Shown here: positions 3,179 to 25,201 of the stretch, in pieces | Position numbering within the stretch: position 1 is the first letter of the stretch | How the letters are laid out: every line of letters starts with the position of its first letter | Virus record (IMG/VR): IMGVR_UViG_3300036783_000276 | Coordinates: 1-30,708 of that record | Strand: one strand, 5' to 3' | Length of the DNA: 30,708 nucleotides | Origin: a virus | Taxonomy: Duplodnaviria > Caudoviricetes | The notes under the pieces: model-generated | Databases searched by the model: none | What the model saw: the letters and a program-made list of their open reading frames with translations, nothing else | What the model was told of the DNA's origin: nothing | Position numbers and translations under genes: made by a program

Positions 3179-3655
3179 TACGTCTCCTAACTCAACCCAG
3201 GAACAGTTGAATGCGCAGTTCGGGTTCACCCCGGCCGGCGTGGAGACCAGCAGCGCCGTCCACACCGTCGAACCCGGCAGCAGGTAGTCCTCCCGGGACA
3301 GCGGGTACTGGATCAGCACTCCCGCAGCCGGGTTGAAGTACCACGTCTTGACCGGCACGAACGTCCCGCCCGACTGGGTGATCGGGGGGATGAAGGCGCT
3401 GAACGCGGAGGCCGTGGACTGGGCGGCGGCCGAGAGCTTGTTCGGGGTGTAGGAGGTCAGGGTCGGGATGTTGGTCGCGTTCCGGGCCAGCTGCACCTTG
3501 ATCCCGGCCGCCGAGGCGGCTGCGTCGAAGGTCACGTCCAGCCAGGTGATCACCCCGTCCGTGTTCGCGCCGCCGGACACGAGGCCGAACACCACCTGGT
3601 TGGGGGTGTTGGCGACGGTGGCGAACGATCCGGTGATCCCGAAGACCGCGCCCAC
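3178..3655 (-). CDS. Putative virion protein (MGAVFGITGSF...FNCSWVE), ~155 aa; ends at a TTA junction and is fused in frame to the next gene if TTA is decoded
   Basis: ORF-track entry 2915..3655 looks like two genes joined by GAG TTA GGA GAC GTA ATG; TAG (3187-3189) and TAA (3178-3180) lie in the +1 frame. Confidence 0.6.
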
Positions 3656-5878: not shown

Positions 5879-6253
5879 CTACCCCCGGCTGATGATGGCC
5901 CACACGGCGGACTGCGAGATGCCGAACCTGACGGCCGCCTGCCGGGTGGTCAGGCCCTGCACCCGGCAGGCGACGATCACCTGGGCGCGGAGTTCCGGGC
6001 CGATCAGCCGCCGGCCCGGCCCCGGGAGGACGGTGAAGACGGTGACCGGGCTCCCGTCCGGGCCGGCGTCGAACCGGGTCAGCACCGCGTGCGCCCTCAC
6101 GCCGTAACGGCGGGCGTGCGCCCGGACCCGCTGGCGCACCCGGAGCCGGGGCTTCCCTTCCTCCAGCCGCCCGGGGACGACCAGCTCGGCCACGGGCTCC
6201 CGGCCGGAGGTGACGGCGAGGACGGCCGCGTACGGCACGGTCGTCTGGTACAT
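5879..6253 (-). CDS. Hypothetical protein with C-terminal helix-turn-helix, 124 aa
   Basis: ATG 6253 after AGGGGGA; C-terminal GLTTRQAAVRFGISQSAVWAII is a typical HTH. Confidence 0.65.
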   Translation of the reverse strand: MYQTTVPYAAVLAVTSGREPVAELVVPGRLEEGKPRLRVRQRVRAHARRYGVRAHAVLTRFDAGPDGSPVTVFTVLPGPGRRLIGPELRAQVIVACRVQGLTTRQAAVRFGISQSAVWAIISRG

Positions 6254-7868: not shown

Positions 7869-8885
7869 CTACCGGAACAGCGACCGGTACGCGACCTCCC
7901 ACAGCTTCCACCCGTCCTCGATCACGAACCGGGCGGCCATGGCCCGCGCCGCCTCGCCCATCTGCGCCCGGAGCGCGTCGTCGGAGGCCAGGACGGACAG
8001 GTACTTCAGCCACTCATGCTCCTGCTTCACCAGGAACCCGTTCACCCCGTGCACGATCACCGGCCGGTAGGCGGGCACGTCGGAGCAGACCGCCGGGATG
8101 CCCCGGGCGCCGTACTCGATCGCCTTGATCGCGGACTTGGAGTTGCTGAACGCGGTAGGCCAGACCGGGCACAGGCCGATGTCGAAGTCGATCAGCTGGT
8201 AGTACCGGTACGGGTGGTCGTTCACCTGGACCCAGGGCGCGAAGAACACCCGGTCGCGCGGGGCCCGGAACGTGGGCCGGTAGTCGGTGCCGCCCAGGTG
8301 CAGGTCCCAGCGGGGGAACCGCTTGAGGAACCGGCGGACCGGCTGGGCCACCTGGCCGATGTCGACGCCGTGGCTGGCGCCGCCCATCCAGCCGACCCGG
8401 GGCCGGTCCCGGGCCGGGCGCGGCGGCAGGCCCAGGACCCAGCCCGGGAGGTGGTTGGGGAGCACGGCGACGTTGCCGCTGTACTCCCGGAGCACCTCGG
8501 CCAGGGGCTCGGTGGAGACGGTCACCAGGTCGGCCACGGCCACGGCGTGCTCCACCGCGTCCCGGATCTCCGGCTTGCCGTATAGCTGGTACGCCTGCCA
8601 GTTTTCCTGCGTGATCGACCACAGGTCGTCATCGAGTTCGTAGACGAGCTTGGCGAACAGGCTGGCCCGGCGCCACACCTCCAGCCCGTCGTGCTTGTTC
8701 CACCGCTGCGCCACGATGACGTCGTGGCCCTGGAGGTCCCGCAGGGTGACCGGAGGCGGGTGGAACCGGTCCCCGGCGTCGATGTAGGTCACGTCGTGGC
8801 CGTGGCGGCCCAGCTCCGTCAGCGGTGTCTGCATCCGGTACCAGGCACAGCCTGAGCCGCCGTCGTGGCCGGCGAAGATTCTCAC
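7869..8885 (-). CDS. Glycosyltransferase, GT-B fold (GT4-like), 338 aa
   Basis: GCAWYR, VYELDDDLW, VTVSTEPL, VGWMGGASH, DIGLCP, KSAIKAIEYGARGIP and VNGFLV motifs. Confidence 0.9.
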   Translation of the reverse strand: MRIFAGHDGGSGCAWYRMQTPLTELGRHGHDVTYIDAGDRFHPPPVTLRDLQGHDVIVAQRWNKHDGLEVWRRASLFAKLVYELDDDLWSITQENWQAYQLYGKPEIRDAVEHAVAVADLVTVSTEPLAEVLREYSGNVAVLPNHLPGWVLGLPPRPARDRPRVGWMGGASHGVDIGQVAQPVRRFLKRFPRWDLHLGGTDYRPTFRAPRDRVFFAPWVQVNDHPYRYYQLIDFDIGLCPVWPTAFSNSKSAIKAIEYGARGIPAVCSDVPAYRPVIVHGVNGFLVKQEHEWLKYLSVLASDDALRAQMGEAARAMAARFVIEDGWKLWEVAYRSLFR

Positions 8886-9028
8886 GGCTTCTCCCTGATC
8901 CGGTCGGCGGTCCGTTCCAGGACCCGGATGAGGACCCGCAGCGCGAACGTTTCCTTCCGCGCCCGCTCGTGCAGGATCCGGGCCGCGCGGCGCAGGCAGT
9001 CCGCGTCGGACCCGGCGCAGGCCCTCAC
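8882..9028 (-). CDS. Small hypothetical protein, 48 aa
   Basis: GTGA coupling at both ends. Confidence 0.5.
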   Translation of the reverse strand: MRACAGSDADCLRRAARILHERARKETFALRVLIRVLERTADRIREKP

Positions 9029-9264
9029 TCGCTTACCCGCTCGGGCCAGTGCCAGGTCCCGGGCGCCTTGCCGTCCTCGTCCTGCCGGCACGGGCGGCTG
9101 AGCGCGTACGCGGGGAGCGGCTGGCCGCCGGGCGGGAACAGGGTCAGCGCGAGCGTGCCGTCCGGCAGCACCGCCGTGACGATGGCGGCCTGGCACGCAT
9201 CCAGCGCCAGCTCAGCCCGGCTGTCCGTCACGCAGTGCACGATCCGGCCGGGGGACGGCCTCAC
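9025..9264 (-). CDS. Conserved small phage protein, 79 aa (PSPGRIVH...AAIVT...GTWHWPER)
   Basis: GTGA-coupled start at 9264; motif pattern of a common small phage family. Confidence 0.7.
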   Translation of the reverse strand: MRPSPGRIVHCVTDSRAELALDACQAAIVTAVLPDGTLALTLFPPGGQPLPAYALSRPCRQDEDGKAPGTWHWPERVSE

Positions 9265-9557
9265 TGGATCTGCCCGGGGACGGCCTTGACCAGGCCGGGC
9301 TGGCGGGCCACGGTCAGCCCGGACTCGCTGAACGAGTCGCGCAGCGCGGTCATGGCGTCCACCCAGCCCTGGGCTTCCTCCCGGTCCTTGATGGGCACCG
9401 ACAGGGTGGTGTTCCCGCACCGGATGGTGAGGAACCCGCAGGTGCCGTCCGGGAGCGGGACCAGCCCGGTCACCATGATGGTCCGGACGCCGGTGTCGAG
9501 CAGCGTGTTGGCCACGTCGAACAGCGGGGGCAGGCCCACCTGGGTTGCCTCGCTCAT
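9261..9557 (-). CDS. Hypothetical protein, 98 aa
   Basis: Strong GGAGGAG RBS; coupled stop. Confidence 0.7.
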   Translation of the reverse strand: MSEATQVGLPPLFDVANTLLDTGVRTIMVTGLVPLPDGTCGFLTIRCGNTTLSVPIKDREEAQGWVDAMTALRDSFSESGLTVARQPGLVKAVPGQIQ

Positions 9558-9566
9558 GATCTCCTC

Positions 9567-10175
9567 CTAGCGGTAGGCGCTCGGCCACACATCGCAGGTC
9601 TCCTCGTCCACGCGGACGTGCCGGATGCCGGCCCTCATCCACGCCCACACCAGGTCCCAGTCCTCGAACTGGCCGCCGTGGTCCCAGCCCGCCACGTCCA
9701 GGATCTCCGCCCGGTGCATGATCATCGGGGTGCCCACGTTCCCGCACGCAACCGGGCCGGTGCCGATCACCGAGCTGCCGTTCGGCCCGTGGGACAGCAT
9801 CCGGGAGACCGCGAACCCCGCGCCCGGGTCCGCGTCCAGCGCCGCCGCCAGCAGCGTGCAGTGCGACGGCCGGAGCGCGTCGTCGTCGTCGCAGTAGGCG
9901 ATGTAGGCGCCCTGGGCGATCTCGCAGGCGTAGGCGCGGGCGTGGTGGCCGTAGTGCGGCTCCGGGTCGTGCTCGGGCAGCTCGCCGTAGTACACCCGGT
10001 TCCAGCCGTCCAGCCACGGCGTGATCATCCTGGTCCGCAGCACCGGGTCCGGGCCGTCGCCGATGACCAGGTGCTCCAGCTCGGGGTGGTCCTGGGCCTG
10101 GACCGAGGGCAGGCACCGGTCGAACAGGTAGTCGTGCCGCTGCCAGGTGGGAGTGACCACGGTGACCAGGCTCAC
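9567..10175 (-). CDS. Glycosyltransferase family 2, 202 aa
   Basis: GTG 10175; VTVVTPTWQR, GDGPD, YIAYCDDDD (DxD) and EDWDL motifs. Confidence 0.9.
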   Translation of the reverse strand: MSLVTVVTPTWQRHDYLFDRCLPSVQAQDHPELEHLVIGDGPDPVLRTRMITPWLDGWNRVYYGELPEHDPEPHYGHHARAYACEIAQGAYIAYCDDDDALRPSHCTLLAAALDADPGAGFAVSRMLSHGPNGSSVIGTGPVACGNVGTPMIMHRAEILDVAGWDHGGQFEDWDLVWAWMRAGIRHVRVDEETCDVWPSAYR

Positions 10176-10408
10176 CCCAGTTCCTCCAGGGCCTCGGGCG
10201 GCAGGTAGGCCTTCATGCGGACCAGATCGCAGGTGACCAGCCGGTGCTCGGTAAGCGGATCCGGCTTCCTGGCGATATCCTCCAGCCGGGCCACCAGGCA
10301 CAGCAGGTCGATCAGCTTCACCGGGATCTCGTCGTCACCGTGCTCCCGGATCCAGTCCGGCTCAGGACCGGGCTGCGCCCAGCGGTCTACCACGAACTCC
10401 AGGCTCAC
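10172..10408 (-). CDS. Hypothetical protein, ~78 aa
   Basis: GTGA coupling at both ends. Confidence 0.55.
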   Translation of the reverse strand: MSLEFVVDRWAQPGPEPDWIREHGDDEIPVKLIDLLCLVARLEDIARKPDPLTEHRLVTCDLVRMKAYLPPEALEELG

Positions 10409-11145
10409 CCGGGCCACCACTCCGGGATGTTCAGCCTCGCGTTGAACGCGGCCAGCGACTCCGGGGTGAACGGCGTGCCGCCGAGCTTGGCGATGTCGGC
10501 GTTGAGGCCGCCGTCGCCCTGGCGGCGGGAGTAGGCGTGCCAGGCCCGCAGGTTTTCCCCCGTCTGTGCATAACTGCGTGCGTAAGTCTGGTCGTGCCCG
10601 GCGCCGAGGGTGTAGTGGTGGTGCGGCAGCATGACGTCATCAAGGTACTCGTGGCCGCAGGCCTGGCACCAGGCGTACCAGGCGACGTCCACGTACATGT
10701 GGCTGATCTCCGGCGGCCCGGCGTAGCCCAGGATCCGCACCACGTCGGCGCGCATGAAGATGTGGCAGCTCAGGCTCCCGGGCTCGCGCGGGTACCGGTC
10801 GTTGGCGAACGCGAACAGCTCGCGGCGCAGCGAGTCCCGGATCCGGTCGTCCCAGCCCCAGGTGTCGCAGGTGTTGTCGTCGCCGACGTGGCCGATGAAC
10901 TCGAACTGCCCCCAGGTCATCACGGCCAGGTAGTTGATCCAGGCGGTGACGTAATGCAGGCCGTCGCTGATCACGTAGCCGGGGCCGGCCGGGTACTCGT
11001 CCCGGGTCTCGTCGTCGGCGTCCAGGCCGATCAGCAGCGTGGTCCGGCCGGCGCAGGTCCGCTGCATCGACTCCCACAGCCGGGCCGCGTTGCCGGGCCT
11101 GCGCAGGCTGGGCACCAGCAGGCCGAGCCGCCCGTCGCCGTCCAT
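10405..11145 (-). CDS. GT2-like glycosyltransferase, 246 aa
   Basis: TGATG-coupled ATG 11145; LLVPSLRRP, LDADD, HVGDD, HMYVD and HHHY motifs. Confidence 0.8.
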   Translation of the reverse strand: MDGDGRLGLLVPSLRRPGNAARLWESMQRTCAGRTTLLIGLDADDETRDEYPAGPGYVISDGLHYVTAWINYLAVMTWGQFEFIGHVGDDNTCDTWGWDDRIRDSLRRELFAFANDRYPREPGSLSCHIFMRADVVRILGYAGPPEISHMYVDVAWYAWCQACGHEYLDDVMLPHHHYTLGAGHDQTYARSYAQTGENLRAWHAYSRRQGDGGLNADIAKLGGTPFTPESLAAFNARLNIPEWWPG

Positions 11146-11810
11146 CAGCAGCTCCCCGGGGCGGCCAGCACGGTCAGCCACGGGTAAGCGGGCAGCGGCT
11201 TGACGTCGGCGAGCGCCTGGCGGCCGGTCAGGAACGTGTCGCCGGTCTTCTCCCGGTACAAGTAGACCGGCGGCGGCGGGATCCAGGCCTCGGTCTGGCA
11301 CCGGCCGGTGGCGATCACCCGGTCGCCCCAGGCCTTCTCAGCGCCGTACCCGCCCGACCACTGCCCGGCCACGGCCAGCTCCCGGCGGATCGGGTTGAAC
11401 TGCATGACAGAGCGGAGCAGCCGTTCCGGGCCGTCCTCCCAGCGGGGGTGCCGCAGCGAATGCTCCACCGGGATCTTCTGCTCGCCGTCGCGGGTCCAGC
11501 CGATGGCGAACCCGACGTAATCCGGCTCGGAGCCCAGCGCGATCAGCACCCGGGCCAGCCCGTCCGGGGCGAGCAGGTCGTCGTCATCGATGCAGGACAC
11601 GTAGTCGGCCTCGCTGGCCGCCACCAGCGCGGCGGTCTTCTCGCCGTAGGAGACGGTCAGGTTGTCCCGGTACAGCAGCACCCCGACCCGGCCCAGCGCC
11701 TCGCAGGCGGTGATCTGAGCGTCCAGGCAGGCCAGCAGCTCGCACAGCGTCTCGTGCCTATGGGGGATCGAGGCAATGAGCAGATCCCAGGTGGGGCAGG
11801 CGCGGGTCAC
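11145..11810 (-). CDS. GT2-like glycosyltransferase, 221 aa
   Basis: GTG 11810; LLIASIPHR, GEKT, YVSCIDDDD and FNPIRRELA motifs. Confidence 0.8.
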   Translation of the reverse strand: MTRACPTWDLLIASIPHRHETLCELLACLDAQITACEALGRVGVLLYRDNLTVSYGEKTAALVAASEADYVSCIDDDDLLAPDGLARVLIALGSEPDYVGFAIGWTRDGEQKIPVEHSLRHPRWEDGPERLLRSVMQFNPIRRELAVAGQWSGGYGAEKAWGDRVIATGRCQTEAWIPPPPVYLYREKTGDTFLTGRQALADVKPLPAYPWLTVLAAPGSC

Positions 11811-12172
11811 GTCAGCAGCCTCGCGTTCTCCGGCAGCCGGGTCGTGTCGGTCTCGTACGCCTCCCCCGAGCGCGGCCCCCGGGTGAAGACCAGCACGGTG
11901 GTGTCTTCCAGGGCCTTCCAGGCGTGCGGGATGCCGGCTTGCTCGATGATCATCTCGCCCGGCAGGTGGACCGAGGACACCCGCCCGTAGCCGTCGATGC
12001 TGGCTGAGGTGAACACCATCTTGCCGGAGACGATGTAGGTCCACTGGGTGGTCAGCTTGTGGACGTGGTTGCCGCGCACCGCCCCGGCCTTGGTGGTGAT
12101 CTCGGTCACCGCGTCGACCTGGCCGAGGAGGTCCTGGATGACGCCGCGCTCGTCCTCGTACCGGTCAGTCAC
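11807..12172 (-). CDS. Cupin (RmlC/FdtA-like NDP-sugar isomerase/epimerase), 121 aa
   Basis: EDERG, RGNHVHK, QWTYIVSG and PHAWKALED cupin motifs; adjacent to sugar genes. Confidence 0.8.
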   Translation of the reverse strand: MTDRYEDERGVIQDLLGQVDAVTEITTKAGAVRGNHVHKLTTQWTYIVSGKMVFTSASIDGYGRVSSVHLPGEMIIEQAGIPHAWKALEDTTVLVFTRGPRSGEAYETDTTRLPENARLLT

Positions 12173-12386
12173 GGTAGATCACCAGCCCGTCCGTGGTGCC
12201 GATCTGCTGCCAGCCGGTCTCAGGCGCCTTGTAGTCGCAGCCCTCGCCGTCCCAGCCGGGGCACTCCCACGTGGTGGCGGTGTAGCCCTGCGCTTCCCCG
12301 GCGCGCGGTTTCATCAGGCCGTGCACGGGGCATTCCGGCGTCATCTGGATGTACAGCTGGGCAGGGCCGGTGCGGATCTCAGCCAC
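12165..12386 (-). CDS. Small Zn-ribbon-like protein, 73 aa
   Basis: CPVHG...WECPGWDGEGC. Confidence 0.6.
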   Translation of the reverse strand: MAEIRTGPAQLYIQMTPECPVHGLMKPRAGEAQGYTATTWECPGWDGEGCDYKAPETGWQQIGTTDGLVIYRD

Positions 12387-13563
12387 GGTAGATCCTGGGG
12401 GCCGGGAGCGGGATGATGACCTGGCCCCGGTAGCCGGCCGCGCGGAGCTTGGGCACCACGTCGCTGGCGATGTGCCAGCAGAACAGGACCGCGTTCGGGG
12501 GCTGCTCGCGGATCATCTCGGCCTCGTCCGCGACCATGATGGCCGTGCCTGGCATGACGGTGCCGATCTTAGCGGAGGCGGGCACCTCGGCGATCTTGCG
12601 GATCCAGCGGCCAAGGCCGGCGAAGTGGATCAGCGGGGTGGCCCGGGTGGCGGCGCCGATGCCCCAGACCGGGCCGTCCTCGCTGGCGATCTCCAGCAGC
12701 CGGCCCAGCTGGTCGCGGGCGGTCTCGGCGCGGGCCTGGAGCTGCTGCGGCCGGCGGGCGGCCCAGGTGCGGAACGACCCGCCGTGCGTGCCGATGTTCT
12801 CGGTCCGGGTGACCAGGAAGCCGTGCATCTCCAGCAGCCGGCCGAGCGTGGCGGGGGTGAAGAACCGCAGGTGCTCGTGGTACACGGTGTCGATCTGGAG
12901 GCCGTTCAGGACCGAGGCGGCGTCGTGGTTCTCGGTGATGAAGACGCCGCCGGGCTCCAGCAGCAGCGAGACGCCCTGGATGAAGTCGTGCGGGTCGGCG
13001 ACGTGGGCCAGGACGTTGGACGCGGTGATCACCCGGGCCTGGCCGAGGGTCTTGGTGATGTCGCCGGCCAGGTTCCAGGTCCAGGGATGCTGCTCGACCG
13101 GGATCACCTTGTCCCGGCACGCGGCGGCCTGCCCGGTGGGTTCCACGGCGAGCAGCCGGGCCTCGGGGTCGGCGCGGCGCACCGCGTCCAGCAGGGTGCC
13201 GTCGTTGGCGCCGATGTCCACCACCAGGTCCCGGGACCGGAGCAGCGGGGCGATCTCCCGGGCGAGCTTGCCGAAGTGCATCCGCATGGCCCGGGTGTTG
13301 CCGGTGGCGTACGGGTGATCGGGCGGGAACACCTCGTCCCGCTCCACCTGGTAGCTGAGCTGGATCAGCCCGCAGGTGCCGCATTCGAGCAGCCCGAGCG
13401 GGTACCGGTTCCCGTCGTCGCGCTCAGCCAGCGGCTGGTCGCCCAGGTCCAGGATCTGGATCATGCCGTCAGCCCGGTCCTCGCCGCAGAGCTGGCAGTG
13501 CTGCTCCGGGACCGGGCCGGCCAGGAAGGTGTCCAGGAGCTTCCGGGCCAGGTCCGGGTTCAC
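12379..13563 (-). CDS. NDP-hexose C-methyltransferase (NovU/TylC3-like), 394 aa
   Basis: CQLC, LDLGDQPLA, CGTCGLIQL, VVDIGANDG, NVLAHV, DTVYHEHLRFF, THGGSFR, GIGA and FCWH motifs. Confidence 0.9.
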   Translation of the reverse strand: MNPDLARKLLDTFLAGPVPEQHCQLCGEDRADGMIQILDLGDQPLAERDDGNRYPLGLLECGTCGLIQLSYQVERDEVFPPDHPYATGNTRAMRMHFGKLAREIAPLLRSRDLVVDIGANDGTLLDAVRRADPEARLLAVEPTGQAAACRDKVIPVEQHPWTWNLAGDITKTLGQARVITASNVLAHVADPHDFIQGVSLLLEPGGVFITENHDAASVLNGLQIDTVYHEHLRFFTPATLGRLLEMHGFLVTRTENIGTHGGSFRTWAARRPQQLQARAETARDQLGRLLEIASEDGPVWGIGAATRATPLIHFAGLGRWIRKIAEVPASAKIGTVMPGTAIMVADEAEMIREQPPNAVLFCWHIASDVVPKLRAAGYRGQVIIPLPAPRIYRG

Positions 13564-13790
13564 TGGATCTCCCGGTATCCGAATCCGAACCCGTGATTAG
13601 GCACGGGCAGCCCGGCCGCGAGCCGCCGCCGCATGACGGTCTCGGCTGCTGCCTGCTCTGCTTCATCAGCGGTGTTCTTGTCGTACCTGGCCTGAAGCTC
13701 GGTCATGCGCTCATCCCATTCCGGGGTATGCACGATGCCGCGCGCACGCTCCTCGTTGTACTGCGCGAGCGCCTTAACCCAGTCGGTCAT
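13560..13790 (-). CDS. Hypothetical protein, 76 aa
   Basis: ATGA/GTGA coupling; YNEERARGIVHTPEW. Confidence 0.65.
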   Translation of the reverse strand: MTDWVKALAQYNEERARGIVHTPEWDERMTELQARYDKNTADEAEQAAAETVMRRRLAAGLPVPNHGFGFGYREIQ

Positions 13791-14758
13791 GTGTTCTCCC
13801 GGTACCAGGCGACGGTCAGCGGCAGGCCCCGGGTGAACGGGGTGCGGGGCAGGTCCACGCCGGCGCCCCGGGCCAGGGCCGCGATCTTGGCGACGTCCGG
13901 CAAGCGGCGCGGCGGTGAGCCCTGCGGCAGCTTCCCGGGCTCCAGCTTGATCCGCCGGCCGTAATACTCGGCGGTCAGGTGCGCGACCTGGCTGATGGTG
14001 ATCTCGTCCATGGTTCCGGCGTGGTAGATCCCGGCCGGGGTACGCGGGTCCAGCAGCAGGGCCAGCTGGGCGGTGCAGTCGCCGATGAAGCAGAACGACC
14101 GGGTTTCCAGGCCGGACCCCTGGACGGGGAACGGGATGGGCCCCTCGGGGTAGCTGGCGGTGAGCCGGTTCATGCGCAGGCAGAACTCGGGGATGACGTG
14201 CTCTTTCCCCATGTCCGGGCCGTAGATGTTGTGCGGCCGGGCGATGATCACCCGGTCCAGCACCCCGGCGCGTTCCCAGGCCAGCGCCATCAGCTCGCAG
14301 GCGATCTTCCCGCCGCCATAGGAGTACCGGGGGTTCAGCGGGTCCGGGACGGTCAGCGGGACGGTCTCCGGGGTGGGTACCTGGCCGGCCACCTGGTAGG
14401 CCTCGGAGGAGCTGATCAGCAGCAGGTCGGCGCAGCCGGTGACCGCGCAGGCGTCCAGCACGGCGAGCATGCCCCGCAGCGCGACGTCCAGGACCTGGCG
14501 GGGCTCGGCGTAGAAGGTCTGGGTGCCCTGGATGTAGGCGGCGTGGATCACCGCGTCGCAGCCCTGCATGGCGGCGGCCACCCGCACCGGGTCCCGGACG
14601 TCGCCCTCGTGCACGTCCAGGTCGGTCCAGGCCGGCAGGCGGCCCCGGCGGCCCCGGCTGAAGTCGTCCAGGACCGAGACCGAGTGGCCGTCCGCGAGCA
14701 GCCGGACGGCCAGGTTGGATCCGATGAACCCGGCACCGCCGGTTATCAGGTAGCGCAC
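13787..14758 (-). CDS. NAD-dependent NDP-sugar epimerase/dehydratase (extended SDR)
   Basis: TGGAGFIGS, SSSEAY, YGGGK (YxxxK), RPHNIYGP and RSFCFI motifs; GTG 14758 after GAGGAG (the ORF track starts at 14779). Confidence 0.92.
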   Translation of the reverse strand: MRYLITGGAGFIGSNLAVRLLADGHSVSVLDDFSRGRRGRLPAWTDLDVHEGDVRDPVRVAAAMQGCDAVIHAAYIQGTQTFYAEPRQVLDVALRGMLAVLDACAVTGCADLLLISSSEAYQVAGQVPTPETVPLTVPDPLNPRYSYGGGKIACELMALAWERAGVLDRVIIARPHNIYGPDMGKEHVIPEFCLRMNRLTASYPEGPIPFPVQGSGLETRSFCFIGDCTAQLALLLDPRTPAGIYHAGTMDEITISQVAHLTAEYYGRRIKLEPGKLPQGSPPRRLPDVAKIAALARGAGVDLPRTPFTRGLPLTVAWYRENT

Positions 14759-14841
14759 GGCAGCACGGCTCCTCGTCATGGCGGGTGTCGTGGCAGCTCC
14801 CTGCCCCCTGGCCGGGCGGGCCGTGCCCTAAGCCAGGATAG

Positions 14842-15528: not shown

Positions 15529-15685
15529 CTAACCAGTAGTGACGGCGCCCGCCGACCGCGTGCCCGGCCGCCCCGGCGATCCACAGCACCGCGCCGACGA
15601 CGAGCAGGATCAGCCCGATGACCCACAGCAGGTAGATGCCGAGGATGAAACCGATGATGGCGAGCAGCGCTCCGACGATGATCAT
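15529..15685 (-). CDS. DUF6131-like small membrane protein, 51 aa ending GGRRHYW, followed by TTA-G instead of a stop
   Basis: MIIVGALLAIIGFILGIYLLWVIGLILLVVGAVLWIAGAAGHAVGGRRHYW matches the actinobacterial family pattern; TAG is in the +1 frame at 15529-15531. Confidence 0.75.
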
Positions 15686-21182: not shown

Positions 21183-22826
21183 TCAGTGACCACTCCCGTT
21201 GACACCGTTGAGGACGGCCGTCTTCGGCGCCGGTATCCACGCGCCTACGTACTCCGGTTCGTCCCGGTACCCGCCCAGCCGTCCCCACTGGCCGCTGCCG
21301 CCAAGGCCGCCAGCTCGCTTGCCCGGGGCGTACCGACCGTAGTCCCGGGCCAGATCCTGGATGACGTGCTCCGGCAGGGCGATCCCGAGCCGGCTGAAAG
21401 ACTCAGCTATATCACGCACGTCGCGCAGGTCAGCCCCTCCGCGCCAGTCGTTATGACCCCGTTGCTGGCCGATCGTCTGGGCCAGCACCGACTCCGGCCC
21501 GGGGACCGGCTGGCCGGAGTCGGCGGCGATGCCTTCCTTCTCCAGCTTCTCCAGCCGGTCCACAGCCAGGTCCATCTCCAGCGTGATCGCATCGAGCATC
21601 GAGTTCGGGATGCCACGGATCGACCTGGACATCGCCACCATGACCTCCAGCGGGATGTTCTCCCCGCCGGCCTTGCCGGGCAGCGGCTCCAGGTCCTCCA
21701 GGTCACGCAGCTCATCGGTGGTGCGCAGGCCCATGTCCCGCTGGAGCTTGTAAATCTCGGTCCGCGTCTTCAGATCGGTCTTCAGGAGGGCATCGCTGTC
21801 GAAGCGGCAGTACCGGTTGGACGGGAGGATGTCAAAGAACGCGGTCTCCAGCCGGACCAGCCACGGACGCAGCGCCTCGATCACCTGGAGCGTGCTTTGC
21901 TCAACGGTATTGTAGGTGAGCGAGTCACCCCTGGTGCCGCCGATGCGGTCGGGAGGCAAACCCAGCACCGAGGCCATCTGGGTGGCGTTCATCCGCATCG
22001 CATCAATAAACTGCGCCTCAGAAGGCGGCACCGTTACCGGTTTGTAATCCCAGTCCCTTCCATATACAAGTGGCTCCCTGCGGCGGATTGTCGCAGTCAG
22101 CATCGAACGGATCTCCTCAGCCTGATCCGCATCGATCTCTATTTCGGAATTCTGGAACGTGCCTGGGGGGAAACCGCCAGCCCTGTACCAGTCGGTGCCG
22201 TACCGCTGGGCTTCCAGGCCGGACAGGATGGTCAGCGCGAACGCGCGCAGCAGCGAGATCCCCTCCAGTCGGCCGGCCAGGGAAAACGCCTTGACGTGGA
22301 ACAGCTCGTCTCGCTTCATGAGACGGCCGTAGACATAAATCCTGGTCCGCAGCGGGTTCCACGGCTGCATCTCGTCGTCCTGGACGCTGACGTCATCGGG
22401 GGGAATCCACTCGATCCCGGTGGGGAACCCGTAGCCGTCCCGGCCGGTGATGAACCCCCAGGCGTTGCCCTGGAGGACCAGGCTGGTCATCATCGTGAAC
22501 AGCCAGTCGAACAGGGTGCCGTCCACGGACGGGTGGTCGAACAGGGTGGGCCCGTGCCAGCGGACCGCGTGTCCGTCCGGGCCGTTGCGGGCGTAGATCT
22601 TCAGCGGCAGCGCGGACACCGAGTCGGCCAGCAGCCGGGCGCCGGAGTAGAGCGCGGGCAGGCCGAGGGCCTCGTCCTGGCCGTACATCGACCGGGACGG
22701 GTGGACCGGGCCGCCCTGGCTAAAAACTTCCAGAAAGGACTATCCCACGGGCGGTAATCGCCAGGGGACACCTCCTATAACGCGCTGCTCAGATCGGCTA
22801 GCCTGGATGCGTTCTATGAGACCCAC
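21183..22826 (-). CDS. Portal protein, HK97 family; full length (~544 aa) requires two recoding events at TTA codons (22755-22757, 22721-22723); the ORF track shows only 21183..22688
   Basis: LLADSVSALPL, LVLQGNAW, LFHVK, GISLL, EAQFID and LRPWLVRLE motifs; GTG 22826 with GGAGGAGG RBS is in frame with ATG 22688 but blocked by TAG at 22740-22742. Confidence 0.9.
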
Positions 22827-22864
22827 TGGATAACTCACCTCCTCCCTATTGCTAGAATGGAAGG

Positions 22865-23581
22865 ATGGGAAGAGGGACGCCAGATCTGACAGGCCAGTGT
22901 TTCGGGCGGCTTCGCGTGCTCATGCGCGACTGGGATGCACCTGGCCCGCACGTTAAATGGCTGTGCTGGTGCGCGATTGAACTCGGCGGTTGCGGCACGA
23001 TGACGTCGGTAGGAAGTGGCGCGCTGCGCTCGGGGATGACCCAGAGCTGCGGCTGCTTGCATCGTGAGCGGACATCTGCCGCCAACTCGGCTAGGCCCAA
23101 GGCTGCCCGTGTTCCGGTACACAGGAATGCCAAGACCCGCGCTAAAACGGCTGATCCGGCTACTTGGAGAGCTAGCTCCCCGTCCTACGGGAGCTGGCGC
23201 AACATGATCCGGCGTTGCACCAAGCCAGAAGATCCGCGCTACCCGGACTGGGGCGGCCGTGGCATTACCATCGACCCGCCCTGGCTGGACTTCACGAACT
23301 TCCTGGCCGACATGGGCGAACGACCGCCGGGCATGACGCTGAACCGGAAGGACAACAACGGTCCTTACGCCAAGTGGAACTGCGAGTGGGCCACCCCGCA
23401 TGAACAGCAGATGAACAGCCGGAACTTCAAGCTGATCCCGGAAACCGTCGCCGAGATCAAGCGCTTGCACGCCTCGGGGATGACCCTGATCGCCATCGGC
23501 CGGCAGATGAACCTGAACCGGCATACCGTGTCGAGAGCCCTGAGCGGCAAGACCCGGCAGCGCAAAAAAGAGCGCACCTGA
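22865..23581 (+). CDS. Free-standing HNH (homing-type) endonuclease with C-terminal HTH, 238 aa
   Basis: DLTGQCFGRLRV, WLCWC..CG, SCGC, YGSWRNMIRRC, WGGRGI, FLADMGERP, LNRKDNNGPY and NCEWAT...N motifs; TAGAAT -10 box 6 nt before ATG. Confidence 0.9.
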   Translation: MGRGTPDLTGQCFGRLRVLMRDWDAPGPHVKWLCWCAIELGGCGTMTSVGSGALRSGMTQSCGCLHRERTSAANSARPKAARVPVHRNAKTRAKTADPATWRASSPSYGSWRNMIRRCTKPEDPRYPDWGGRGITIDPPWLDFTNFLADMGERPPGMTLNRKDNNGPYAKWNCEWATPHEQQMNSRNFKLIPETVAEIKRLHASGMTLIAIGRQMNLNRHTVSRALSGKTRQRKKERT

Positions 23582-23593
23582 GCCAGATACGTC

Positions 23594-23617
23594 TTGGATG
23601 CGCTCGATCAGCCCCAC
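23594..23617 (-). pseudogene. Orphaned original 5' end of the portal gene (MGLIERIQ) left upstream of the HNH insertion
   Basis: GTG GGG CTG ATC GAG CGC ATC CAA with GAGGAG RBS; the same 8 residues as 22803-22826 but different codons. Confidence 0.8.
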
Positions 23618-23686
23618 GGGGCCGGGACTCCTCGGCTCGGGACGGGCGCCCAGCTCCGTTCCGGCCGTGGGCAGTGATTACCACAC

Positions 23687-23740
23687 AGGTTACGCCACGT
23701 CAGCGCGGTATGGCACGCCAGAGCCGTTAACCAGGGTTAA
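23687..23740 (-). promoter_or_regulatory. Putative portal-operon promoter (-10 TAACCT) with upstream palindrome TTAACC-AG-GGTTAA
   Basis: AGGTTA at 23687-23692; perfect 6-bp inverted repeat at 23727-23740. Confidence 0.45.
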
Positions 23741-23758
23741 GAACCGTATTCCTGTTCG

Positions 23759-24148
23759 CTACGGCGTGTTCAGCCAGCCGTCCGGGATGACCTCCAGCGG
23801 CGCGACGCCCGCCTTCTGCCTGCCCTCGCAGAGCAGGGCCTGGTACTCGTGCGGGTGCTTGCGGGCCAGCCCGGCCATGGCGTGCAGCTCCGGCGGCCAT
23901 TCCCGGCCCAGCCCCGGACGCGGCCAGGTCAGCAGCGCGTCCCAGAGCATCGCCGCCAGCGTCCGCCCCTGAGTGAAGACGGGTGCCGGGAGGATGAACC
24001 GGGCTTCGACCTCACCCCCGCCCCACCTCGAATAGCGGCCCTCGATGCTGAACTGGAACACATCGCCGGTCACGATCGTCGCCTCTTTCGGACCCGGCCC
24101 GGCGTACAGCAGCCAGCCCGGGAGATTCTGGCGGTACACGGCGCTCAC
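23759..24148 (-). CDS. Hypothetical protein, 129 aa
   Basis: GTGA-coupled start; plausible codon usage. Confidence 0.6.
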   Translation of the reverse strand: MSAVYRQNLPGWLLYAGPGPKEATIVTGDVFQFSIEGRYSRWGGGEVEARFILPAPVFTQGRTLAAMLWDALLTWPRPGLGREWPPELHAMAGLARKHPHEYQALLCEGRQKAGVAPLEVIPDGWLNTP

Positions 24149-24463: not shown

Positions 24464-25201
24464 TCAGATGGCTGCCAGGCCCGGGTCGCTGCGAGCGTAA
24501 TAGTCCAGGGTGATCTCCGGGACCCAGGCCCAGGTGACGCCCGCGCGCAGCCACCGGTCCACCAGGTGCCAGTCGGCGGGGCGGCCGGACGGCTCCCAGG
24601 TCGCGGTCTCCAGCAGCCCGGCCCGGTGCACGATCATCGACGTGTCGATCTGGCTGAACACGGGCTGGCAGCAGCCGATGACCCAGGCCCTGGCGGCGTG
24701 GCTGTCCTGGCACAGCGCCTTGCCGTAGGCGAACGACACGTCCTCGCGCTCGATCGCGCCGGCCAGCAGCCGCAGGTGGCCGGGCCGCCAGGCGTTGTCG
24801 TCATCCAGGTAGGCGATCAGGTCCCCGGTGGCCAGCCGGGTGCCGGCCAGCCGGGCCCAGATGCCCCGGTTCAGCTGCTCGCGGTGCTCGTCCAGGAACA
24901 CCACGCCGGGCACGTCCTCCAGGGCCGGGTCCGGGCCGTCGCTGACGATGACGTGCTCGATCTCGCCGTCGTAGTCCTGAGCCTGGATGGATGGTATGCA
25001 CCGGTCCAGCAGCAGCCTGTGACGGCGCCAGGTGGGGGTGACGACGGAGATCTTCGGCCTGCGGGCCAGGACCGCCGAGACGAGCGTGCGGATGACCCGC
25101 GCGGCGGCGCGGATCACGTGCACGTGCACGGCGATCACGGCCCGGACTACGTGCGGGTGCGCGACGGCGGCGGCCAGGACGATGTGAGCATGCGGCGTCA
25201 C
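24464..25201 (-). CDS. Glycosyltransferase family 2 (paralog of 9567..10175) with unusual His/Val/Ala-rich N-terminal extension
   Basis: ISVVTPTWRRH, SDGPD, IAYLDDDN, IDTSMIVH and DWHLV motifs; start uncertain. Confidence 0.85.
   Translation of the reverse strand: MTPHAHIVLAAAVAHPHVVRAVIAVHVHVIRAAARVIRTLVSAVLARRPKISVVTPTWRRHRLLLDRCIPSIQAQDYDGEIEHVIVSDGPDPALEDVPGVVFLDEHREQLNRGIWARLAGTRLATGDLIAYLDDDNAWRPGHLRLLAGAIEREDVSFAYGKALCQDSHAARAWVIGCCQPVFSQIDTSMIVHRAGLLETATWEPSGRPADWHLVDRWLRAGVTWAWVPEITLDYYARSDPGLAAI

Follow-up and report, generated by a model that had tools for sequence, protein, structure and literature searches.

TTA-led extras in the 5' end of a phage portal gene, probably hopped over by ribosomes and likely brought in by an HNH cassette

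The window, that is, the whole stretch of DNA analysed here, is a 30,708-nt viral contig of 70% G+C, in which an HK97-type portal gene (PF04860, E 1.5e-50) belongs to a terminase-portal-protease-capsid module. The gene is encoded on the minus strand and falls into three segments. Segment 1 (22758..22826) consists of 23 synonymously recoded codons, from a GTG start to the codon CGA (22760-58), from which the ribosome would take off. Gap 1 (22751..22757) follows, with 7 nt made up of an in-frame TTA (22757-55), a C and the presumptive landing codon CGC (22753-51). Segment 2 (22724..22750) encodes PWDSPFWKF in 9 codons, has the same residue as the uninterrupted relative L001 at 9/9 positions and ends with a second candidate take-off codon, TTT (22726-24), next to a second in-frame TTA (22721..22723); a gap of 2 nt here would place the landing on TTT (22724-22) and resumption at AGC (22721-19). 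Segment 3 (21183..22721) holds 512 codons and the stop codon. With both hops, which together pass over 9 nt, a portal protein of 544 aa is predicted, and the nearest database homologs measure 544-551 aa. Without hopping, the frame from GTG 22826 stops at TAG 22742-40, 28 codons in.

The original prediction, that two TTA-led hops between matched codons restore the portal frame, proved accurate in every coordinate given for the GTG, CGA, TTAs, CGC, TAG and ATG. It had also rated the ribosome-binding site (RBS) as strong at GTG 22826 and unrecognisable at the internal ATG 22688, for which the anti-Shine-Dalgarno (anti-SD) duplexes were -16.0 and only -2.9 kcal/mol, respectively. As it expected of homologs, the uninterrupted relatives L001 and L002 have VPWRPWDSPFWKFSQGG unbroken where the window has both junctions. 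An AlphaFold model of L001 is an HK97-like portal with low confidence at residues 1-52, so that it is uninformative on the portal N-terminus. Assembly error was checked with Logan contigs from four soil runs, three of which (X1, X2, X3) span the site, X4 having no cover there. The contigs of X1 (22674-24000) and X2 (21933-23110) show 0 differences and that of X3 (22495-23461) shows 2 substitutions and 0 gaps, and thus all three carry both extras. No joined, gap-less form at the site was listed among the contigs of X1-X4. X1 is possibly the run from which the window itself derives.

An intact HNH endonuclease gene of 238 aa (22865..23581, plus strand; PHROG 374, E 9.3e-50) is divergent from the portal gene, with 39 nt from its ATG to the portal GTG; the protein presumably has homing activity. 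A -10-like hexamer, TAGAAT (22853..22858, plus strand), lies 6 nt ahead of the HNH ATG. A similar hexamer is found just 5' of the HNH ATG in 9/12 HNH loci examined, and a scan of the window for a full sigma-70 promoter found none; the HNH transcript is likely nearly leaderless. The extended SD of the portal start (22835..22846, minus strand) accounts for the -16.0 kcal/mol and can pair in a 9-bp hairpin. On the far side of the HNH gene lies a relic of the ancestral portal 5' end (23595..23662, minus strand) with a weak RBS, a GTG (23617-23615) and the first 7 codons (GLIERI), a 68-nt near-identical match to the 5' end of the uninterrupted relative L024. The old weak start is located 768 nt upstream of the portal. 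A terminator-like hairpin and then a T run (23573..23594, minus strand) would form the left edge of the cassette, and a GCGCTCTTTT-like motif is found between relic and new start in several relatives. It is likely that the HNH cassette brought a replacement portal 5' end with both TTA-led extras. The original prediction had overlooked both the cassette and the duplicated gene start, which explain the inserts. From the old portal start, 260 codons can still be read on the strand opposite the HNH gene (22835-23617, minus strand), up to an end in the new SD, possibly reflecting translational coupling or chance. An apparent TTA-ended gene at 22954 was rejected as an antisense shadow of the HNH gene.

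We collected relatives of the portal gene at no fewer than 166 loci from viral and metagenome scans, the later scans contributing the best 80 of 218 and the best 80 of 138 matches; two scans of bacterial genome contigs gave none. Enough upstream DNA was present for 99 distinct 5' ends, and 95 were kept after L105, L143, L144 and L155 were left out for low alignment scores. The ends were aligned to a profile of 53 uninterrupted ends with sequence-blind gap costs, a procedure that is blind to TTA. It yielded 55 gaps, or 53 after two double gaps had been merged by hand, and 51/53 begin with an in-frame TTA when the placement is allowed to shift by one codon either way. The two exceptions are an in-frame loop in L086, which was scored as a non-carrier in comparisons of 40 carriers with 55 non-carriers, and a 7-nt gap led by AAA in L146, adjoining an HNH gene, which may represent another hungry codon or an error. 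The 51 TTA-led gaps, 2-13 nt long and at 10 columns, are distributed over 39/95 distinct 5' ends, with double gaps in 10 sequences and a triple gap in one; 54 relatives are gap-free. The predicted inserts of the form NNN-TTA-(N)-NNN with differing lengths therefore exist. The column of window gap 1 accounts for 20/51 gaps, and the second window junction recurs in the relative L116. In the uninterrupted 5' ends, TTA occupies 0/1566 in-frame codons and 13/4590 positions in any frame.

The residues before and between the gaps are near-invariant (R3, P9, P12 and W13 in 95/95, W10 in 94/95), and the GC3 of the portal body is equal in carriers and non-carriers. Carriers are scattered over the portal tree with at least 20 state changes, and L047 and L048 have identical bodies and different gaps. 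It could be supposed that no recoding takes place, the gene being broken, started at the internal ATG 22688, or expressed by read-through of a single in-frame TAG; since the window gaps sum to 9 nt, one TAG is the sole in-frame block there, and the first 52 residues of the model, being of low confidence, are at ease with such a view. We give it almost no credence, because the gaps cause a net frameshift in 27/39 carriers, downstream ATGs are rarer in carriers (8/40 vs 28/55) and lack an RBS, read-through of TAG would put other residues in place of the invariant PW motif, and the equal GC3 of the two groups argues against decay.

The final triplet of each gap is not required by the alignment, and hence offers a free test of whether the landing codon matches the take-off codon. 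Among the 51 gaps, the landing codon is identical in 17, synonymous in 21 and near-cognate in 13, and 48 landings share at least two of three bases with the take-off codon; matches at codon positions 1, 2 and 3 number 46, 48 and 22. Of 39 distinct junctions, 28 are synonymous, compared with a mean of 6.4 and a maximum of 14 in 10,000 permutations. Near-cognate landings recur, namely GAT to GGC/GGT (3) and TGG to TGC/TGT/AGG/CGG (8). In the main column, 16/16 arginine gaps take off from CGA, a codon used for 2/36 arginines at that column where no TTA gap occupies it. Weak inosine-A pairing is a possible reason for take-off from CGA. Even the eleven gaps that preserve the frame close with a matched or near-cognate codon, suggesting that to decode the TTA as leucine is not an option. 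By a crude score, an equal or better landing triplet occurs earlier in 10/51 gaps, window gap 2 included. The last codon of each gap could plausibly re-pair with the take-off tRNA, and so the hopping of ribosomes over TTA-led gaps is well supported by these alignments, as is the original claim for the window.

The same boundaries bear on the idea that the extras are removed from RNA or DNA before translation, as micro-introns, by editing or by precise excision. Contigs do lose rare variants, and a joined form could go unseen in them for that reason. We consider this highly improbable: the boundaries fit tRNA wobble (third position 22/51, first two 46 and 48) and not repeats or splice motifs, the TTA is invariably in the upstream reading frame, and the joined form is absent from the contigs listed for the four runs. 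The gap boundaries in these sequences follow tRNA pairing, not DNA repeats. For junction 2 of the window alone, junction 1 being a hop, a -1 slip, or stuttering of the polymerase at the T5 run, has to be weighed, either of which would add one Phe. A +1 slide also re-pairs on TTT, with TAG then in the A site, and other landings tolerate first-position mismatches, both of which leave room for a slip. The +2 slide re-pairs perfectly, the length of homologs is fixed here (53 fixed-spacing sequences), and the T run is just 5 long, which is short for slippage or stutter; we regard the slip as rather unlikely and prefer a second hop.

No excess RNA structure was found flanking the gaps in the relatives' 5' ends (window z -0.91), and no take-off stem-loop of the gene 60 type was found, the gaps being too short for a mini-SD. 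Internal SDs at GG codons gave a naive p of 0.0003 and a p of 0.45 in independent pairs. Occlusion of the SD by a hairpin was rejected as a carrier trait, since its naive p of 0.03 was gone in independent pairs.

Carriers differ from non-carriers in the start region. An extended SD of -12 kcal/mol or stronger is present in 39/40 carriers vs 0/55 non-carriers (15 independent pairs, p 6e-5), and ATG is the portal start in 38/40 vs 16/55. An HNH gene lies within 1.5 kb upstream in 13/40 carriers, two of these being weak remnants, vs 1/55 non-carriers (Fisher p 3e-5; median p 0.016 over 9 independent pairs). The relic of the old start was detected in 19/36 carriers vs 4/50 others (p 5e-6), and where the nuclease is gone it is often just 50-100 nt upstream. 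Four gap-free relic bearers have RBSs of intermediate strength (-8.5 to -10.1). Synonymous differences per same-residue codon were 0.62/0.48/0.43 in the 5' columns, 0.25-0.34 in the body and 0.25-0.36 in controls. The layout of the window, with old start, HNH gene and new start in succession, explains the strong-SD, ATG starts of the carriers. An HNH of the window's kind was not seen in 27/40 carriers, nor the relic in 17/36, in a set where some carrier loci are short or have no close non-carrier, which limits detection of either. The terminase gaps of L011 and L144 had no HNH match in their loci, and 14 distant HNH relatives had no strong-SD portal-like neighbour.

We compared the use of TTA elsewhere in these phages with that of other codons. 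Five related records (131-210 kb) were examined together with the window, and in each of the 6 no codon is rarer than TTA. A first pass over TTA as a stop (162 'continue', 42 stop-like, 113 mixed, 36 TTA-only) was dominated by antisense and shadow frames and was replaced by a frame-filtered test on 289 sequences, in which 87 in-frame TTAs followed 60 coding-like codons; 42 had no homolog and 45 were testable. TTA was read in 0 of the 45, with 25 aligned to a stop, 12 near an end, 6 in gaps and 2 unclear; for several of the stop-aligned rows just 1-2 homologs were available, and a few possibly represent shadow frames. Junk tails of 3-164+ codons trail 21/25 of the stop-aligned sites. Sampled control codons were read in frame at 77/86 (TTG) and 50/71 (CTA), and an earlier run with seven control codons agreed with this result. 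Genes that end in TTA exactly at the family stop include capsid (2/70), terminase (4/69) and connector (1/50) genes, counted as distinct ends with the off-frame protease rows left out; tails of 38 and 176 codons trail TTA-ended capsid genes, and such capsid genes are present in L011 and L236. A hop from the terminal TTA to a nearby stop is possible in just 1/21, and the base after the terminal TTA is T or C in 17/21.

Two such ends lie in the window, both on the minus strand. A TTA at 3188..3190 ends a 155-aa gene (3655-3191), with an SD-like GGAG and the next gene's ATG behind it. Among 8 homologs (49-64% identity), 6 stop at this column, 1 stops at the following residue and 1 diverges before reaching it; a copy of 96% identity continues past the TTA as the window does. 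A TTA at 15530..15532 ends a 51-aa DUF6131 gene, for which the Pfam model (2-59 of 59) ends one residue before, and the position of the TTA is shared by two relatives whose tails are unrelated. TTA-led gaps also occur in genes other than the portal gene, namely gaps of +5, +7, +8 and +8 in the terminase of four relatives and two of +4 in a glycosyltransferase-like gene. A further +4 TTA gap, in an unnamed gene and with AAT as take-off and TAC as landing codon, was noted on the minus strand of L174 (G002), near 9278 from the piece end. No gap starting with TAA, TAG or TGA was found, and so termination at UUA is likely slower than at a normal stop, which would give the ribosome time to hop. Taken as a pattern in DNA, these results suggest that in this phage family TTA likely signals stop instead of encoding leucine.

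No tRNA-Leu(TAA) was present among 323 ARAGORN calls on phage DNA; Leu(TAG) was missing as well, which makes the absence of Leu(TAA) weak evidence. Three gap-carrying phages (G002, G003 and G004; L167-L169) have 34-39 tRNA genes each, with Leu CAA, GAG and CAG only. An RF-1 domain was found in 1/8 related records, in a short GGQ protein (L216:1435-1827; G008) that we take to be ArfB-like by its size and that had no second match among the loci then collected. No release factor was found in the other 7/8, a regex search for GGQ factors returned noise only, and neither Pth nor PTH2 was found in 5 related records. ARAGORN also called a putative tRNA-Thr(CGT) at 6055-6145 of the window (minus strand) and putative permuted tmRNA-like genes at L028:666-1320, L033:5228-5885 and L093:1228-1885. 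The host is likely actinobacterial, given a WhiB in one related record (G001) and best cultured portal matches to mycobacteriophages at ~30%.

Such a host agrees with the interpretation offered by the original prediction, an inverse bldA gate in which UUA is leucine, read by a bldA-like growth-phase tRNA, and the gaps are selected so that the portal is made when that tRNA is scarce. The publication on UUA-linked bypassing in Streptomyces phages to which it referred does exist, and presents such a model for the Hau3 terminase (PMC10732093). A phage growing solely while UUA is unreadable would give the same sequence picture. This part of the prediction did not hold up as its hops between matched codons did, and we judge the gate unlikely: TTA was read as leucine at 0/45 testable sites and terminates capsid genes, with their 38- and 176-codon tails, and terminase genes, so that there is no sign of a second, decoding state. 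Moreover, 55/95 relatives are gap-free, and the gaps go with the HNH cassette and are exchanged between sister sequences. An integrase was looked for in 5 related records, of which 2 have a completeness of at least 90%, and none turned up, so that a lysis/lysogeny decision is not evident.

We propose as the probable explanation that the TTA extras belong to a replacement portal 5' end delivered by the HNH cassette, and that ribosomes hop over them because UUA is likely a slow stop or an undecoded codon. The cassette would invade the portal gene near codon 7, and recoding together with the gaps would ruin the nuclease's own target, for which T4 MobA is the demonstrated precedent. A UUA in the A site that no tRNA reads would cause the peptidyl-tRNA to let go; the Arg-tRNA on CGA would slide 7 nt and, later, the Phe-tRNA on UUU 2 nt, each re-pairing before translation resumes. 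Failed hops would release a stub of 23 or 32 aa. Candidate reasons why UUA goes unread are a release factor of the host, loss or destruction of the tRNA, and timing. The very strong RBS likely makes up for these losses, in which case the portal dose would likely stay low, as the ancestral weak start gave. We infer a cycle of invasion, frequent loss of the nuclease, and then loss of the gaps with decay of the SD. A broader proposal, to which we give slightly less than even weight, is that in a soil actinobacterial lineage or its infected cells UUA is a slow fourth stop through an altered release factor, and that HNH cassettes exploit it by planting 2-13-nt inserts invisible in the protein. If so, the family would contain minimal bypass sites of natural origin, independent of one another, numbering in the dozens and tuned by RBS strength.

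Antonov et al. (2023, PMC10732093), citing Smith et al. (2013), describe UUA-led bypass of the large terminase in phiHau3, a Streptomyces phage, and in two prophages, with 4 sites in 3/100 terminase genes interpreted as a lysis/lysogeny sensor and junction evidence obtained in E. coli with UAA. The portal gaps resemble Hau3 in having a short UUA-headed gap in a packaging gene, with two serial gaps possible, and its 7 and 10 nt fall within the range seen here. They differ in their number (51 portal gaps of 2-13 nt, plus the terminase and glycosyltransferase-like gaps), in near-cognate landings, in the link to an HNH cassette and strong RBS, in that no integrase was found and in the use of UUA at gene ends as well. 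The word 'portal' has a single, unrelated mention in the available text of PMC10732093.

In T4 MobA/gene 60, the insert blocks nicking and persists after the nuclease is gone (Manning and Atkins, bioRxiv 10.1101/2022.08.31.505936). Shared features are an HNH nuclease with a replaced stretch of host gene and a bypassed insert, matched or wobble take-off and landing codons, a stop or hungry codon at take-off, and a bypass that outlives the nuclease. The gene 60 gap is ~50 nt, whereas those here measure 2-13 nt, occupy 10 positions and number as many as 3 in one gene; they have UUA as trigger, and neither a stem-loop nor a mini-SD was found. Where MobA leaves its host gene as two proteins with extra tails, the portal gene stays in one piece and has a duplicated, replaced start. 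As just a 7-codon relic is left and one whole protein is predicted, the feature works like MobA without being a member. Its action resembles that of MobA/gene 60 and its trigger that of Hau3, with a stop-like UUA as the basis. The byps of Magnusiomyces mitochondria have a different trigger codon and structured inserts. As mentioned in PMC5009743 and in the bioRxiv discussion, they comprise numerous mobile inserts, at which ribosomes hop from a poorly decoded codon and land loosely; they differ from the phage gaps in belonging to yeast mitochondria. PMC5009743 also sets Hau3 against bypass of a deleterious insert; our data argue that this phage family is the deleterious-insert case rather than regulation of the Hau3 type.

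UUA is a stop in organelles (NCBI table 23; labyrinthulean mitochondria, peDinoflagellate plastids and Marsupiomonadales, PMC12574857), where likewise it is missing inside genes and present where homologs stop. Here it is found in a bacterial phage family, as a minority terminator that is also a hop trigger; in organelles, a change of release factor is known to go with the code. tmRNA tagging at UUA is discussed in PMC2635970. Our literature search, outside which most subscription papers lay, found no report of portal bypass, of a homing cassette with UUA gaps or of a UUA stop in phages.

Few systems of natural translational bypassing have been published, and for bypass led by UUA the record comprises four terminase sites, which may serve either regulation or the tolerance of an insert. 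The portal family offers 39 distinct junctions with natural controls, from which landing rules can be read directly (two-of-three pairing, middle G:U, first-position mismatch), and it points to an origin in a selfish cassette and away from a developmental switch. A further suggestion is that UUA has changed from sense to stop in a bacterial system, a change for which published reports were found for organelles only. Gene callers truncate gap-bearing portals and fuse TTA-ended genes.

Two minor observations concern other parts of these phages. In L019 and L021, similarity breaks near residue 290 of the portal query, after LTYN and then Cys, which suggests an intein; among database portals, several are as long as 770-870 aa and are covered in part. 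In the window, glycosyltransferases, a C-methyltransferase and an NAD-dependent epimerase are encoded among the virion genes (7869-14779 and 24464-25201), a sugar-enzyme cluster that likely serves virion glycosylation.
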